Below are positions 23,626 to 63,860 of a DNA stretch of 64,000 bases, piece by piece. A program made the translations under genes and the position numbers. Every line of letters starts with the position of its first letter. The first letter of the stretch is position 1. The DNA is from Octopus sinensis. Taxonomy: Eukaryota. The DNA lies in the NCBI RefSeq assembly GCF_006345805.1, contig NC_043000.1:62001-126000 (forward strand). The letters run 5' to 3'. The notes beneath the pieces were generated by a model that was given only the letters and a program-made list of their open reading frames with translations, made no database searches and was not told where the DNA came from.

Positions 23626-24075
23626 GTATATATATATATATAGTTAGTTGCCCGTTTATATATATATAAAGGTTAGTTGCCCGTTTTCAGTTTCAATTTT
23701 CCTGTAACAAGCGGATTATAAGTGGATAAAACAGTGTATTTGGCTTTAGAATAACCCTCTTTAGCCCTTAATTATATGATGTATATTGCAACCGTAACGG
23801 TTTTTTTAAATATACTGCCCACGCTTCCTGATGAATTCCTTTGCTGTAGAGTAAGGGACTTCATCCTATATTGCTTAGTAGTAAACTCGATGCTTGCTAC
23901 AGGAGGACTGGTAACCATTACAATTTGTAGCGGCGAAAGGTCTGGACGTTGTTTTCTGAGGCTGACCAAAGAATTTTTATTTTTAGATATAAATGATGTA
24001 CTCAAGTGTAGTTATGTTTTTAGCTTGTGCTTTTTCCATGATCATACGTGAGTATTTTATTTATATCCCATCGAA

Positions 24076-24143
24076 ATTTCTACTGAAGAAGGAATATATC
24101 TTTTTTTATAAGATTAAGTCCGAAATTGATTCAATATAGAGAT
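24076..24143 (+). ncRNA. Type I hammerhead ribozyme, copy 1
   Basis: Stem I ATTTCTA/TAGAGAT; core CTGAAGA plus an extra A; stem II GGA..ATCTT/AAGAT..TCC; GAAA; stem III ATTGA-t-TCAAT; AUA^ site after 24136. Confidence 0.85.
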
Positions 24144-24570
24144 AACGAAATTTAAATTTTCTAAAGGTTAGTTGCCCGTTTTCAGTTTCAATTTTCCTGT
24201 AACAAGCGGATTATAAGTGGATAAAACAGTGTATTTGGCTTTAGAATAACCCTCTTTAGCCCTTAATTATATGATGTATATTGCAACCGTAACGGTTTTT
24301 TTAAATATACTGCCCACGCTTCCTGATGAATTCCTTTGCTGTAGAGTAAGGGACTTCATCCTATATTGCTTAGTAGTAAACTCGATGCTTGCTACAGGAG
24401 GACTGGTAACCATTACAATTTGTAGCGGCGAAAGGTCTGGACGTTGTTTTCTGAGGCTGACCAAAGAATTTTTATTTTTAGATATAAATGATGTACTCAA
24501 GTGTAGTTATGTTTTTAGCTTGTGCTTTTTCCATGATCATACGTGAGTATTTTATTTATATCCCATCGAA

Positions 24571-24637
24571 ATTTCTACTGAAGAAGGAATATATCTTTTT
24601 TTATAAGATTAAGTCCGAATTGATTCAATATAGAGAT
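24571..24637 (+). ncRNA. Type I hammerhead ribozyme, copy 2 (GAAA->GAA deletion)
   Basis: Reads CCGAATTGA instead of CCGAAATTGA. Confidence 0.7.
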
Positions 24638-25064
24638 AACGAAATTTAAATTTTCTAAAGGTTAGTTGCCCGTTTTCAGTTTCAATTTTCCTGTAACAAG
24701 CGGATTATAAGTGGATAAAACAGTGTATTTGGCTTTAGAATAACCCTCTTTAGCCCTTAATTATATGATGTATATTGCAACCGTAACGGTTTTTTTAAAT
24801 ATACTGCCCACGCTTCCTGATGAATTCCTTTGCTGTAGAGTAAGGGACTTCATCCTATATTGCTTAGTAGTAAACTCGATGCTTGCTACAGGAGGACTGG
24901 TAACCATTACAATTTGTAGCGGCGAAAGGTCTGGACGTTGTTTTCTGAGGCTGACCAAAGAATTTTTATTTTTAGATATAAATGATGTACTCAAGTGTAG
25001 TTATGTTTTTAGCTTGTGCTTTTTCCATGATCATACGTGAGTATTTTATTTATATCCCATCGAA

Positions 25065-25132
25065 ATTTCTACTGAAGAAGGAATATATCTTTTTTTATAA
25101 GATTAAGTCCGAAATTGATTCAATATAGAGAT
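25065..25132 (+). ncRNA. Type I hammerhead ribozyme, copy 3
   Basis: Same sequence as copy 1. Confidence 0.85.
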
Positions 25133-25559
25133 AACGAAATTTAAATTTTCTAAAGGTTAGTTGCCCGTTTTCAGTTTCAATTTTCCTGTAACAAGCGGAT
25201 TATAAGTGGATAAAACAGTGTATTTGGCTTTAGAATAACCCTCTTTAGCCCTTAATTATATGATGTATATTGCAACCGTAACGGTTTTTTTAAATATACT
25301 GCCCACGCTTCCTGATGAATTCCTTTGCTGTAGAGTAAGGGACTTCATCCTATATTGCTTAGTAGTAAACTCGATGCTTGCTACAGGAGGACTGGTAACC
25401 ATTACAATTTGTAGCGGCGAAAGGTCTGGACGTTGTTTTCTGAGGCTGACCAAAGAATTTTTATTTTTAGATATAAATGATGTACTCAAGTGTAGTTATG
25501 TTTTTAGCTTGTGCTTTTTCCATGATCATACGTGAGTATTTTATTTATATCCCATCGAA

Positions 25560-25627
25560 ATTTCTACTGAAGAAGGAATATATCTTTTTTTATAAGATTA
25601 AGTCCGAAATTGATTCAATATAGAGAT
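25560..25627 (+). ncRNA. Type I hammerhead ribozyme, copy 4
   Basis: Same sequence as copy 1. Confidence 0.85.
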
Positions 25628-26939
25628 AACGAAATTTAAATTTTCTAAAGGTTAGTTGCCCGTTTTCAGTTTCAATTTTCCTGTAACAAGCGGATTATAA
25701 GTGGATAAAACAGTGTATTTGGCTTTAGAATAACCCTCTTTAGCCCTTAATTATATGATATATATATATATATATACATATATATATGAATGACATTAAT
25801 TTCTTAAAATCATGCGTTGATTATATGTAAACATTTGCCACAAAATTTTTAGTTAGATTTTGGCGGTGGGGTTAGTTGATTATATCGACTCTAGTTTTCA
25901 ACTGGTACTTACCTGATCGACTCCGAAAATTCACACAAGCTACTGGTCGACCCAGAGTTAAAGGAGAAGTGAGTTGCCTATAGTGCCATGCATTGGGATT
26001 GAACGCGAAATTATGTGATAGAATAATTAAGTATTTAACTAATTGAGACTTTTGATTCCGAACATTGCAATTTTTTCGTTATACGAAATTCTGGTGAGAA
26101 ATCAAATGAAATCTTATACCCGAGAGAGGAAATAATTTGATTAATCGCCAGAATTTCATTTAATTTGGAGAAGTACAATAGGGAAGGTATTGACATGATA
26201 TATTATGAAAAAGTTGGGGGATAAACAAATTCACAGATCACTTAATTTATGGTGTTGCAACAATGTATAACAAGGAAATACTGGAGTTAGTAACGGGAAA
26301 TACCTATGTAGTTGTGTCTATTAAATACGATTTGTCATTGATAATTATAATTCATTTTCGAGGCGGTGCTTTATCATGATCACAGTTTATTGACTATAAC
26401 AGGTAAAATGCGTATTTGAATAATGATTTCTAATTTAAGACGAAGACCAACGATTCGGGAGATGGGAACAGACTATTACAAACATGGGTAATCTTTTTTT
26501 TTTCCGAGATGTGGGCCGCATGAGACATGCCTCATCGTCAAGTGTGCCGCTCTACTAAAAAGAAAGATAATATCTTGTCAGGCCTGCCATTAAGAAGGTC
26601 TTGTGGACCGCAAGTTGTCCATGGCTTGTCTATTACAACGTGTCCGTTTTTTACCCCGGAAGTAGGAAAGACAACGTTGATGTTGGCGGGATATGAATTC
26701 AAAGTATGAAGATCCGAGACAAATACTGCAAGCAATTTCTTCGGCGCTCTAACAACCCAGCTAATCAGCCCCTCTATAAGTGTGTGGATAATTGTGTGGT
26801 ACCATCCACAGGACTGTTGATTACATGTTTTATATAGCTAAGAGTGTCTACATTCCTCTAAACCCCAGCTCGATCAAATATGATAGGTGATTAAACATCT
26901 CGTACTACTGTAATAATATAATAGGGATTAGTGTAATCG

Positions 26940-27372
26940 TAGCGGCAGACGAAATACCTATTTCTTTACTACCCACAAGGGGCTAAACATAGAGGGGACA
27001 AACAAGGACAGACAAACGGATTAAGTCGATTACATCGACCCCAGTGTGTAACTGGTACTTAATTTATCGACCCCGTAAGGATGAAAGGCAAAGTCGACCT
27101 CGACGGAATTTGAACTCAGAACATAACGGCAGACGAAATACCTTTTCTTTATTGCCCACAAGGGGCTAAACTTAGAGGGGACAAACAAGGACAGACAAAC
27201 GGATTAAGTCGATTACATCGACCACAGTGTGTAACTGGTACTTAATTTATCGACCCCGGAAGGATGAAAGGCAAAGTCGACCTCGGCGGAATTCGAACTC
27301 AGAGCGTAGCGGCAGTAGAAATACCGCTAAGCATTTCTCCCAGCGTTATAACGTTTCTACCAGCTTACCGCC
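26940..27372 (-). mobile_element. Tandem Tx1-tailed SINE A units
   Basis: Two ~183-bp units, each followed by GGTATTTCGTCTGCCG. Confidence 0.85.
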
Positions 27373-37045: not shown

Positions 37046-37630
37046 GGCGGCGAAATGGCAGAAAACGTTAGCACGCCGGGCGATATGCTTAGCGGTATTT
37101 CTACTGCCGCTACGCTCTGAGTTCAAATTCCGCCAAGGTCGACTTTGCCTTTTATCCTTTCGGGGTCTATTAAATAAGTACCAGTGACGCACTGGGATCG
37201 ATATAATCGACTTAGTCTGTTTGTCTGACCTTGTTTGTCCCCTCTGTGTGTAGCCCTTGTGGGTAGTAAAGAAATAGGTATTTCGTCTGCCGCTACGTTC
37301 TGAGTTCAAATTCCGCCGAGTTCGACTCTGCCTTTTATCCTTTCGGGGTCGATTAAATAAGTACCAGTTACGCGCACTGGGGTCGACATAATCGACTTAA
37401 TCCGTTTGTCTGTCCTTGTTTGTCCCCTCTATGTTTAGCCCCTTGTGGGTAGTAAAGAAATAGGTATTTCGCCTGTTTTTATGTTCTGAGTTCAAATTTC
37501 GTCGAGGTCGACTTTGCCTTTCATCCTTTCCTGGTCGATAAATTAAGTACCAGTTGCGTACTGGGGTCGATGTAATCGACTGGACCCCTCCACAAACATT
37601 TTGAGCCTTGTGTCTAGAGTAGAAAAGAAT
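37046..37630 (+). mobile_element. SINE A triple: head, body+Tx1 tail twice, then body+standard tail
   Basis: GGTATTT restarts at 37094, 37277 and 37463. Confidence 0.9.
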
Positions 37631-40979: not shown

Positions 40980-41575
40980 TTGGTTTCAAATTTTAGTAAA
41001 AGACCAACAGTTTGGGCGGAGGAGGGTGGGAGTTAAGTTGATTACATCAAGCACAGTAATCAACTGATGTGTTCTTTTTTTATCGACTTCAAATGGATAA
41101 AAAACAAAGTAGATCCCAGCGGAATTTGAACTCAGAACGTAAAGACATACGAAATACCTATTCCTTTATTACTTACAAGGGGCTAAACATAGAGGGGACA
41201 AACAAGGACAGACAAACGGATTAAGTCGATTACATCAACCTCCAGTGCGTAACTGGTACTTATTTATCGACCCCGAAAGGATGAAAGGCAAAGTCGACCT
41301 CGGCGGAATTTGAACTCAAAACGTAGCGGCACACGAAATACCTATTTCTTTACTACCCACAAGGGGCTAAACACAGAGAGGACAAACAAAGACAGACTAA
41401 CAGATAAAGTCGATTACATCGACCCCAGTGCGTATCTGGTACTTAATTTATCGACCCCGAAAGGATGAAAGGCAGAGTCGAACTCGGCGGAATTTGAACT
41501 CAGAACGTAGCGGCAGACGAAATACCGCTAAGTATTTCACCCGGCGTGCTAACGTTTCTGCCAGCTCACCGCCTT
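40980..41575 (-). mobile_element. SINE A triple (two Tx1-tailed units inside an older copy)
   Basis: GGTATTTCG restarts on the - strand at ~41342 and ~41157. Confidence 0.85.
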
Positions 41576-41696: not shown

Positions 41697-41768
41697 GCGT
41701 CGGTGGTGTAACGGTTAGCACGGTTGCCTTCCAAGCAGTCGGTCCGTGTTCGACTCCCGGCCGACGCA
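41697..41768 (+). tRNA. tRNA-Gly(TCC), 72 nt
   Basis: Acceptor GCGTCGG/CCGACGC; D-arm GTGT/GCAC; anticodon loop CTTCCAA (TCC 41730-41732); T-loop TTCGACT; one T.C mismatch in the T stem. Confidence 0.9.
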
Positions 41769-56755: not shown

Positions 56756-57431
56756 CCACACATACAGGTATTCAAGTATTTGTGTGTTAGGTTCAGGGCA
56801 AAGCTTTGTCATATTTTACAAATATCAAGAGGAAAGACAGAAATAGACAAACCCGATTTAAGTGTTTGTGTACCAAAAGAAAAGCATAGATTCTCAATAG
56901 AGAAGCAAATTTCATTATCTGAGCTGCTTTCAAAAATAACATTGCCTTGACCCGTATGACATGTTACCTTGATTTATCTCATACACTTCCAACATTATCA
57001 ACGAAAGATTAAGTTATTGTAGTAGTTATTATCTCTTCTGGTTCTGTTTATAAGCGTTACATAGGCTGTTGGGTTTTATGAGTATATTTTTGCACATACA
57101 GACTCACTCGATTGTTGTTGTTTTTTTTTTCTTGAGCTTAATTTTTTTTCATTCCTAGCATTTTGAAAAACTTGAGAAAAATTTATGTTTTGTTAAATAA
57201 GAAAATCTTTTTTTCTTATTTTAGTAATTTGACTGCGATCGTGCTGGAGCACCACCCTGAATGGTTTTAGTCGAATAAATCGACACCTGAGACTTTTTTT
57301 TATCGTTCTAGTCTTGTGCTAGAAAGAGCAGTAGAAGAGTTTTCTACTGCTCTTTCTAGTACTAGGCTTTCCTATTTGGAAGCCTCTTAATGTGTTCTAA
57401 TGGACAAGATATTTCTATGTGAATAATATAT

Positions 57432-57850
57432 AGGCGCAGGAGTGGCTGTGTGGTAAGTAGCCTGTCTACCAACCACATGGTTCCGGGTTCAGTCCCACTG
57501 CGTGGCACCTTGGGCAAGTGTCTTCTACTATAGCCTCGGGCCAACCAAAGCCTTGTGAGTGGATTTGGTAGACGGAAACTGAAAGAAGTCCGTCGTATAT
57601 ATGTATATATATATATGTATGCGTGTGTGTGTTTGTGTGTCTGTGTTTGTCCCCATAGCATTGCTTGACAACCGATGCTGGTGTGTTTGTGTCCCCGTCA
57701 CTTAGCGGTTCGGCAAAAGAGACCGATAGAATAAGTACTGGGCTTACAATAGAATAAGTTCCGGGGTCGAGTTGCTCGATTAAAGGCGGTGCTCCAGCAT
57801 GGCCGCAGTCAAATGACTGAAACAAGTAAAAGAGTAAAAGAGTAAAGAGA
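57432..57850 (+). mobile_element. SINE B, full length, inserted in the first direct repeat
   Basis: The empty site is visible in the second repeat (AATATATA|GTCTATT). Confidence 0.9.
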
Positions 57851-58091
57851 GTCTATTGACTTTGTTTTTTGTGCTAGGCCACTGGTAATAATAATTTCTA
57901 TAATTTTTATTACCCTAATATTATTTATTATGTTTAAATAATTTTTGATAGATTTGTTCGAAAATTTTTACCGGCATCCTCTCTGTCGCCGGAAATATAC
58001 TGCATCAACGCGGTTGTTTTGAAAAATTAGAATATACAGGCAACCGGTTTACACGCGAATCTAGTTGTGTGTATATTTGAAATCTAAAGGC

Positions 58092-58163
58092 TTCCTACTG
58101 ACGAAACTAGCCTCAGTAAATATTTTTTTTTACTGGAATGAGTTAGAAACCATGGTCTAGGAA
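58092..58163 (+). ncRNA. Type I hammerhead ribozyme
   Basis: Stem I TTCCTA/TAGGAA; CTGACGA; stem II AACT..CAGTAAA/TTTACTG..AGTT(A); GAAA-CCATGG-TC^ after 58157. Confidence 0.85.
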
Positions 58164-58414
58164 CTAAATTAGATGGTAAACGTGTTTAATTTTCAATCCT
58201 TTCGAGAATTTATCCATAATTAGTGGTTTGAGTTTCCTACTGCTCTTTCTAGCACAAGGCTTTCCTATTTGAAAGCCTCTTAATGTGTTCTAATGGACAA
58301 GATATTTCTATGTGAATAATATATAGTCTATTAACTATTTTTTTTTGTTCTAGACCACTGGTAATAATAATTTCTATAATTTTTATTACCCTAATATTAT
58401 TTATATATATGTAG

Positions 58415-58467
<53 letters not shown>

Positions 58468-63369: not shown

Positions 63370-63384
63370 ATATCATATAATTAA

Positions 63385-63860
63385 TAATAAATTTTAGGGT
63401 AGCAAAAAATTCTAGAAAAATTCTCCGCTACCAGCGGGTCACGTGACAAAGAAAAAAAAAGTCAATAGACTATTAATATACATCAAACAATAAGGGATGG
63501 CTATAATAGGACATCTGACTCACTAGAAAGAGCAGCTAAACTCCAAACCATTAATAGTTGTAATTCTGAAATGGAAAGAGAAATAAAAATGTTTACCCTC
63601 TCGTTTCTGGACTATGCATAGTTTCGGCAATCTTTCGTAAATAAATAAAATAAAATAAAATTTATTTAACAGTGGCGTTGCACTCATTAGCAGAAAAGCC
63701 AAGGACTACCATATATTCACAAGGCGATAACGAGCATGCCTCGAGTCTATATGCTATAGACTTTCAAAATCAACCGCATTTGCGCGGTTCTCTCAGCAGT
63801 AAATATAAACTGCCGATTTAATTTCAAAATTAGTCAAAAAAATCATTAATTAATAGATTT
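63385..63860 (-). mobile_element. Diverged monomer of the ~475-bp hammerhead element family
   Basis: Shares GCGGTTG.TTTGAAA, CTGCTCTTTCTAG, GTCTATTGACTTT and TACCCTAA with 57850-58403. Confidence 0.75.
63604..63696 (-). ncRNA. Type I hammerhead ribozyme with G5A substitution (probably inactive)
   Basis: - strand: TTTCTG-CTAATGA-GTGCAA...TTGCC-GAAA-CTATGCATAG-TC^-CAGAAA. Confidence 0.75.

Follow-up and report, generated by a model that had tools for sequence, protein, structure and literature searches.

A dispersed non-coding hammerhead repeat of Octopus sinensis, a likely non-LTR retrozyme probably copied in trans by Penelope-like elements

Results

A SINE-interrupted element of 1.37 units

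The window analyzed here is a 64,000-nt stretch of Octopus sinensis contig NC_043000.1 (positions 62,001 to 126,000, forward strand), which contains at 57310-58404 an element that, a SINE aside, consists of a 5′ inverted piece followed by a forward part of 651 bp, or 1.37 units of a 476-bp monomer (Table 1). The original prediction had described ~175-bp terminal direct repeats, a monomer of ~475 bp once the SINE is removed, a short inverted copy capping the 5′ end and no ORF. Repeat finding gave a direct-repeat spacing of 476, and the monomer measured 476 bp after removal of the SINE. The terminal repeats were recovered as well, at about 172 bp compared to 175 bp with intervening bases, the left and right repeats diverging by 4-5%. 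The inverted cap is present but starts about 5 bp further to the left than predicted, and the longest stop-free frame of the monomer is 64 codons, in agreement with the lack of an ORF. No target-site duplication is visible at this copy. Folded as a circle, the window monomer gave a z of −5.1 against 30 shuffles, compared to −2.4 for the opposite strand. The inserted SINE has A/B-box-like sequence, from which we take it to be of the tRNA-derived class. The window copy is a single-hammerhead product of 1.37 units that was hit by the SINE afterwards, and is probably a dead end.

Table 1. Features of the element and of a related copy in the window.
Feature	Position	Strand	Remarks
Inverted head-to-head 5′ piece	57310-57338	−	57310-57334 is 96% identical to the reverse complement of 58237-58261; hairpin with start of forward copy
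Left pseudo-terminal repeat, first segment of 5′ partial unit, up to internal TATATA	57337-57433	+	96% to 58230-58326
tRNA-like SINE, later insertion at internal TATATA, foreign to the element	57434-57852	+	Right boundary approximate; 31 blast matches in window; ends set against three other copies
Second segment of 5′ partial unit	57853-57928	+	57862-57928 is 96% identical to 58338-58404
Complete non-coding monomer (476 bp, 31% GC), predicted circular RNA unit	57929-58404	+	Repeat spacing; circular fold
Predicted type I hammerhead	58083-58173	+	Distal stem I 58083-87/58169-73; proximal stem I 58092-97/58158-63; stem II 58105-145
Hammerhead core CUGACGA and GAAA	58098-58104, 58146-58149	+	Palindromic stem III 58149-58156; GUC, predicted cleavage after 58157
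Predicted Watson-Crick pseudoknot, loop I-loop II	58088-58113	+	58088-92 with 58109-13; compensatory changes F1-F4
Internal TA-rich site 1	58315-58325	+	3′ end region in 59/125 F1 insertions; the SINE entered its left-repeat twin
Internal TA-rich site 2, 3′ end of window copy, into (TA)n/(CA)n flank	58393-58420	+	End region in 51/125 F1 insertions
F3 copy, ~61% to F1, own hammerhead	63380-63850	−	Ends in (TA)n

Other repeats occur in the window. A 495-bp tandem at 23667-25765 (4.2 copies, 99%, TA-flanked) contains a motif resembling a type I hammerhead, the core of which is followed by one extra A; dispersed copies of its unit were found in L067 (with an inversion) and L254. Because of this motif, the TA flanks and the dispersed copies, the 495-bp unit looks like an unrelated retrozyme family; comparison with the 476-bp unit gave a best E of 0.23 and nothing at E≤1e-3, as the original prediction had it. 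Elsewhere in the genome, further unrelated type I motifs with a long stem II and a palindromic stem III (L161:1119, L401, L206:3217 and L156:3338, all on the minus strand) suggest the existence of more retrozyme clans. Another abundant interspersed repeat forms short tandem arrays with a period of 183-186 (26943-27325, 37094-37581 and 41079-41526), and a tRNA gene lies at window positions 41697-41768 (Rfam, 55 bits; Gly-TCC according to ARAGORN).

A clan of at least four related families

The 476-bp monomer belongs to a dispersed family, here named F1. In the 2.72-Gb genome, a 20-base ribozyme motif of F1 returned 83 exact matches compared to 0 for the control, and a second F1 hammerhead motif returned 121 matches at ≤2 mismatches (control, 2). 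Our F1 set comprises 125 insertions from 140 loci, 14 same-place loci having been dropped and one having given no separate insertion. Since most of these loci were chosen by hammerhead motif, the share of insertions crossing the ribozyme (119/125) is biased. Short F1 matches in L066 were rejected as AT-repeat noise. Judged from its sequence, F1 fits the testable defining traits of a non-LTR retrozyme, being a short, non-coding, low-GC unit with a predicted type I hammerhead.

Three sister families, F2 (~490 bp), F3 (~465 bp) and F4 (~463 bp), were reached through diverged neighbors and share 61-70% identity with F1; all three occur as dispersed copies and show partial tandems as well as inverted pieces. 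A 28-base sister-family motif matched the genome 1280 times (control, 0). The whole clan set amounts to ~316 loci (125 F1, 44 F2, 41 F3, 24 F4 and 82 further), a count that includes any overlap between families. The window copy had been proposed to represent an independent non-autonomous lineage using the machinery of Penelope-like elements (PLEs). It stands apart from the 495-bp unit, yet belongs to a group of at least four related families; its use of PLE machinery, to which four fusions described below lend new support, is likely rather than observed. In three further runs, which come from two studies and carry the labels of three organisms, contigs cover 30 of 30 unit bins at ≥85% likeness. 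No run on record as RNA was listed as carrying the unit, and contigs of four presumed-RNA runs overlap the F1 unit in a way that is uninformative on strand, ends and level.

Covariation between families argues for a conserved ribozyme

The window hammerhead was the sole match of a motif scan on both window strands, and Rfam at gathering thresholds gave no hammerhead match in the window, suggesting that standard ribozyme searches undercount such families. The GUC and the palindromic stem III of the original prediction were retrieved, but the "perfect 6-bp stem I" is peculiar to the window copy and incidental, because the fifth pair is formed in only 6 of 28 F1 hammerheads. The usual stem I begins with 4 bp, which an internal loop separates from a distal helix.

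We aligned 28 F1, 28 F2, 31 F3 and 29 F4 hammerheads from loci chosen by whole-unit similarity. Among the 28 F1 sequences, core columns show 98.7% majority compared to 93.8% for their surroundings; covariation between families is stronger evidence for the predicted hammerhead than this difference. As first pair of stem I, F1 and F2 have A-U where F3 and F4 have G-C, and the fourth is C-G or U-A across families. Stem II differs in sequence among F1/F4, F2 and F3 with pairing retained, and within F1 it switches from G-C to A-U (10 and 11 copies, respectively). The stem III palindrome spans 8 or 12 bases. Conservation of the hammerhead, on which the original prediction depended, is thus borne out at the level of the fold: although the families are only 61-70% alike, they retain the core and, with compensatory changes, the helices, which suggests selection for the ribozyme.

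All four families have a GGC in the stem I loop opposite a GCC in the stem II internal loop. Ahead of this block, F1 and F4 have an A-U pair where F2 and F3 have U-A; behind it, the bases are U-A or U-G in 26 of 28 F1 and G-C, G-U or A-U in 29 of 29 F4, and are unpaired in F2 and F3. This contact is predicted to be a Watson-Crick loop-loop pseudoknot, the four families counting as few independent events.

Stem II starts, directly behind A9 and ahead of G12, with an A·A mismatch (alternatively read as two extra As) in 26/28 F1, 20/28 F2 and 20/29 F4, and with G-C in 28/31 F3, such that the canonical pair 10.1-11.1 directly between A9 and G12 is not found in the majority of F1, F2 and F4 hammerheads. 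The window copy lacks the 5′ A of this base, as in 5 of 28, which leaves an unpaired A before GAAA. F4 has a U at core position 3 in 23 of 29 sequences. Ribozyme activity may be reduced by the A·A. Related deviations have been described, namely an extra base after position 9 in PLE hammerheads (PMC4209133) and, in axolotl, a helix II with U·U at its base (PMC7229834).

F1 insertions have Penelope-type ends and lengths

Main segments of 110 out of 125 F1 insertions terminate within the two TA-rich windows listed in Table 1, which together make up 15% of the unit, and 3′ ends run into TA-rich DNA in 93 of the 125 compared to a background of 11.7%. Lengths range from 0.3 to 1.7 units (longest, 800 bp). 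The Penelope-type geometry first seen at the window copy holds for the family, as 27 of the 125 insertions are longer than one unit and 56 carry head-to-head inverted pieces, a tally in which the window copy counts as non-inverted because our script split it at the SINE. Inverted pieces end at the same two TA-rich sites in 39 of 58 cases. F1 therefore displays the microsatellite target, partial tandem and inverted 5′-truncated copy of PLE-type integration, with target duplication not discernible.

At the 5′ side, the cleavage site shows no excess of ends (6/183 compared to 5.0 expected). Only 25 of the 67 non-inverted F1 copies have a TA-rich 5′ flank, the other 42 being without TA. F1 copies extend 5′ into their own sequence and not into a shared ORF, and no 5′ extension is common to the 67 non-inverted copies bar a SINE pair and one duplicated pair. 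Two complete same-strand hammerheads were found in 2 of the 125 F1 loci and in several F3 loci, the window copy having one, and no long F1 array was encountered among the 125 insertions examined.

Whole insertions together with their TA flanks have been locally duplicated or triplicated at L009/L010 (G000:C2:75.54 Mb) and L393 (G000:C1:189.77 Mb), with periods of ~1180 and 528 bp, respectively; such events are a route from single insertions to arrays. TA tracts also serve as shared landing pads, SINEs and other repeats having entered the retrozyme's internal TATATA (57434-57852 in the window; L128:3175-3409).

Coding PLEs of the same genome follow the same end rule

In the coding element PLE-A, the unit measures ~3975 bp and contains two ORFs (RT plus GIY-YIG) together with a minimal hammerhead. 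Its RT matches Pfam RVT_1, and in look-alike clusters of the Atlas as many as 58% of members carry GIY-YIG (score 0.98). A CX4CxxC linker lies ahead of the C-terminal endonuclease; a CX2-5CxxC linker in this place is described as marking Neptune/Nematis and is tied to (TA)n targeting (PMC8557442). By motif definition, PLE-A is Neptune/Nematis-like. It ends at an internal TATATA, behind which either (TA)n or a continuation of its own unit follows (19 of 30 loci readable); this is the end rule of F1. The hammerheads of the coding PLEs are minimal, their stem II being short and their stem III CCGG, whereas the clan form is extended.

L064 (G000:C1665:154000-163999) holds a tandem of near-identical (99.9%) coding PLE-A units, whose overlapping upstream ORF of ~450 codons has no Pfam match and is unusual for single-ORF PLEs. 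A distant, GC-rich PLE family (23% amino-acid identity to PLE-A) starts directly after the (TA)n of an F1 end at L226 (G000:C8:41.65 Mb) and L442.

Four retrozyme-PLE fusions

Direct same-strand joins of retrozyme DNA to a 5′-truncated Neptune-type PLE, without (TA)n, were found in 4 of the ~316 clan loci (L022, L176, L367 and L412), all four with an inverted retrozyme arm. At L022, F1 is joined to PLE-A at a shared CCTCTT microhomology; at L176, an F3 part that breaks off mid-hammerhead is joined to the GIY-YIG end of a second PLE subfamily at a shared TGC. The partner PLEs of L367 and L412 are older and broken, and the L367 joint is near a normal end site.

Several other contacts were rejected as fusions. 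L021, L128, L149, L179 and L371 are tail-to-tail neighbors, L226, L230, L387 and L418 have (TA)n in between (L226, L387 and L418 being head-to-tail neighbors that keep a TA spacer), and at L122 the PLE lies 630 bp away. The apparent PLE contacts at L127, L206 and L255/L393 came from an AT-rich, non-PLE portion of the probe.

The two halves of L022 are both young. Its F1 part differs by 3 substitutions in 369 (0.8%), compared to a median of 3.8% for the 15 nearest copies, and is the least diverged of the 16; the window copy used as query gave 3.7%. Its PLE part shows 11 substitutions in 2531 (0.4%) to the nearest copies and 3.3% to the majority of 15 PLE-A copies, the latter figure arising because most of these belong to another subfamily. 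At L176 the ages are discordant (2.3% for the F3 part and 5.8% for the PLE part, from a mixed reference set).

As a set, the four fusions are reasonably likely to derive from template switching. Alternatively, the PLE may have arrived afterwards, entering the (TA)n that borders the retrozyme, forming its 5′ joint by microhomology and deleting 0-270 bp of retrozyme, in which case any (TA)n-targeting RT, for instance that of Naiad-type PLEs, could mobilize the clan. This course of events is an appreciable possibility, since it would give the same polarity, PLEs enter retrozyme-end (TA)n, and 5′ joints are often without TA. TA tracts are indeed shared by PLEs and clan copies in at least 9 other loci, microhomology 5′ joints and deletions have been described for PLEs (PMC3846280), and Naiads are reported to target (TA)n too (PMC8557442). 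However, later insertion would not readily account for the concordant ages at L022, for the two joints that lie ~200-270 bp from any TA end site, or for a PLE half at L176 that looks no younger than the retrozyme half. We favor template switching.

Discussion

A proposed mobilization cycle

F1 is a dispersed, non-coding, hammerhead-bearing 476-bp repeat. We consider it likely that F1 is a non-LTR retrozyme copied in trans by the RT and GIY-YIG endonuclease of (TA)n-targeting Neptune-type PLEs. The rare loci with two hammerheads would be transcribed and would self-cleave to unit-length RNA, which a host ligase could close into a circle, as in published retrozymes. The PLE endonuclease would nick genomic (TA)n, and the freed 3′ end would anneal to either internal TA-rich site of the RNA, at which the insertions are seen to end. 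Traveling around the circle, the RT may pass its starting point, which would yield the observed 0.3-1.7 units and their pseudo-terminal repeats. Since (TA)n has the same sequence in either orientation, priming could take place a second time, on the opposite strand, and so produce the head-to-head inversions. Occasionally, an RT begun on its own PLE RNA would jump to retrozyme RNA at a short microhomology, giving fusions such as the four described above. Copying beyond unit length from circles has been proposed both for PLEs (PMC4209133) and for retrozymes (PMC7229834).

Trans-mobilization by PLE enzymes could instead proceed from linear read-through transcripts of partial-tandem loci, with template jumping providing the extra length and the hammerhead being weak or incidental. 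The scarcity of loci with two same-strand hammerheads (2/125), the absence of any insertion above 1.7 units among those examined and the non-canonical stem II base of three of the four families would fit such a template, and self-priming and template jumps of PLEs are discussed in PMC3846280. We nevertheless regard a linear template as unlikely: the compensated core and helices across families that share 61-70% identity imply that the ribozyme is under selection, the circular form of the unit folds well, and circles have been shown for other animal retrozymes (PMC7229834). A circular template is the reading retained here.

The F1 unit and the pLTRs of coding PLEs

Had F1 been simply the solo pLTR of a coding PLE, its sequence would be expected in such elements. 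The best match of F1 to the full PLE-A unit had an E of 0.13, and the 29 other PLE-A loci gave none beyond two chance-level matches of 30-40 nt. No clan sequence was detected in 19 PLE-A2 loci, nor F1 in 29 PLE-B loci, where one short F2/F4 neighbor match was seen. No PLE ORF is directly joined upstream to a clan copy in the ~316 loci, and RT plus GIY-YIG ORFs were found only in separate or fused PLEs and not in the F1 unit. L022, which runs into an RT ORF, was rejected as a coding parent of F1 because at the other 29 PLE-A loci the sequence upstream is their own. On sequence comparison, the F1 unit is not the pLTR of the three abundant coding PLE families sampled (77 loci plus the PLE-A unit).

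That F1 is, or recently derives from, the pLTR of an unsampled or extinct coding PLE is improbable in our estimation: a pLTR origin is proposed for Xenopus retrozymes, of which 24 of 57 families are homologous to TEs, nearly all to PLE termini (10.64898/2026.07.22.740005), and the three families checked here are drawn from many in the genome (14548 and 20688 first-look candidates), but homology to any of the three, a 5′ extension shared among the 67 non-inverted copies, an adjoining upstream ORF and the minimal hammerhead of the coding PLEs are all wanting.

Beyond trans-mobilization itself, we tentatively propose a more specific scenario, which falls short of being probable. The clan would consist of circular-RNA parasites that do not descend from the pLTRs of their host PLEs and were captured by a Neptune-type RT through two TA sites mimicking a PLE end; the fusions would be fossils of template switching, and the ribozyme an undescribed hammerhead with a pseudoknot and an A·A core extension.

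Published support for PLEs as mobilizers of animal retrozymes consists of co-occurrence and pLTR homology. If true, template-switch fusions would be direct genomic evidence for PLE enzymes copying retrozyme RNA in trans. For the partial-tandem and inversion mechanism of PLEs, which is listed as unsolved in PMC8557442, a circle of 476 nt would moreover offer a minimal substrate. A single genome provides intact-looking partner ORFs, hundreds of integration footprints, four fusions and a priming rule by which an internal TA site is used on (TA)n, and trans-mobilization is therefore directly testable.

Comparison with known retrozymes, PLEs and hammerheads

Retrozymes and a proposed link to PLEs are already published. 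In the literature covered, which held few subscription papers and lay outside Repbase and Dfam, we found no account of this clan, its integration statistics, a sub-dimer PLE geometry without pLTR homology, the fusions, the A·A stem II base or the ribozyme variant.

The metazoan non-LTR retrozymes of Cervera and de la Peña (2020; PMC7229834), with a mussel example and with PLEs proposed as mobilizers, are described as having, like the clan, a non-coding low-GC unit (31% here), a type I hammerhead, a short palindromic helix III and a predicted self-paired circle. The clan differs by its longer unit (460-495 compared to ~170-400 nt) and by insertions that are nearly all shorter than two units and not tandem arrays, as well as by fixed TA priming sites, head-to-head inversions and direct PLE fusions, the first two of which do not appear in the available portion of that description. 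Li, Clavereau and Pollet (2026; 10.64898/2026.07.22.740005) likewise have retrozymes depend on PLEs, with common monomers and units of 51-972 bp, a range that includes that of F1. Their evidence, as far as the available text goes, is co-occurrence and pLTR homology, mostly in vertebrates, whereas ours is integration geometry and fusions, without homology to the sampled pLTRs.

Within the octopus genome, PLE-A, PLE-A2 and PLE-B resemble F1 in having a hammerhead close to an internal TA end that leads into (TA)n, and in occurring as 5′-truncated, partially tandem and inverted copies. PLE-A is unlike F1 in its two-ORF unit and minimal hammerhead and has no sequence homology to it. Trans-mobilization of pLTR-flanked DNA has been described in rotifers (PMC3846280), and the non-autonomous Chlamys elements of green algae, such as MRC1 (PMC8557442), are non-coding, bear pLTRs and are mobilized by PLEs at microsatellites. 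According to the sections available, Chlamys non-autonomous elements generally share 3′-end sequence with their autonomous partners, whereas the clan shares none detectable.

As for the ribozyme, published PLE hammerheads share with the clan the extra A after A9, the palindromic helix III and the option of acting as dimers. A pseudoknot as tertiary contact is already known from another hammerhead form, in the solved structure of which it replaces helix II. By contrast, the clan keeps helix II, its predicted pseudoknot of 4-5 bp would connect the stem I loop to the stem II internal loop, and F1, F2 and F4 have an extra A before G12 as well.
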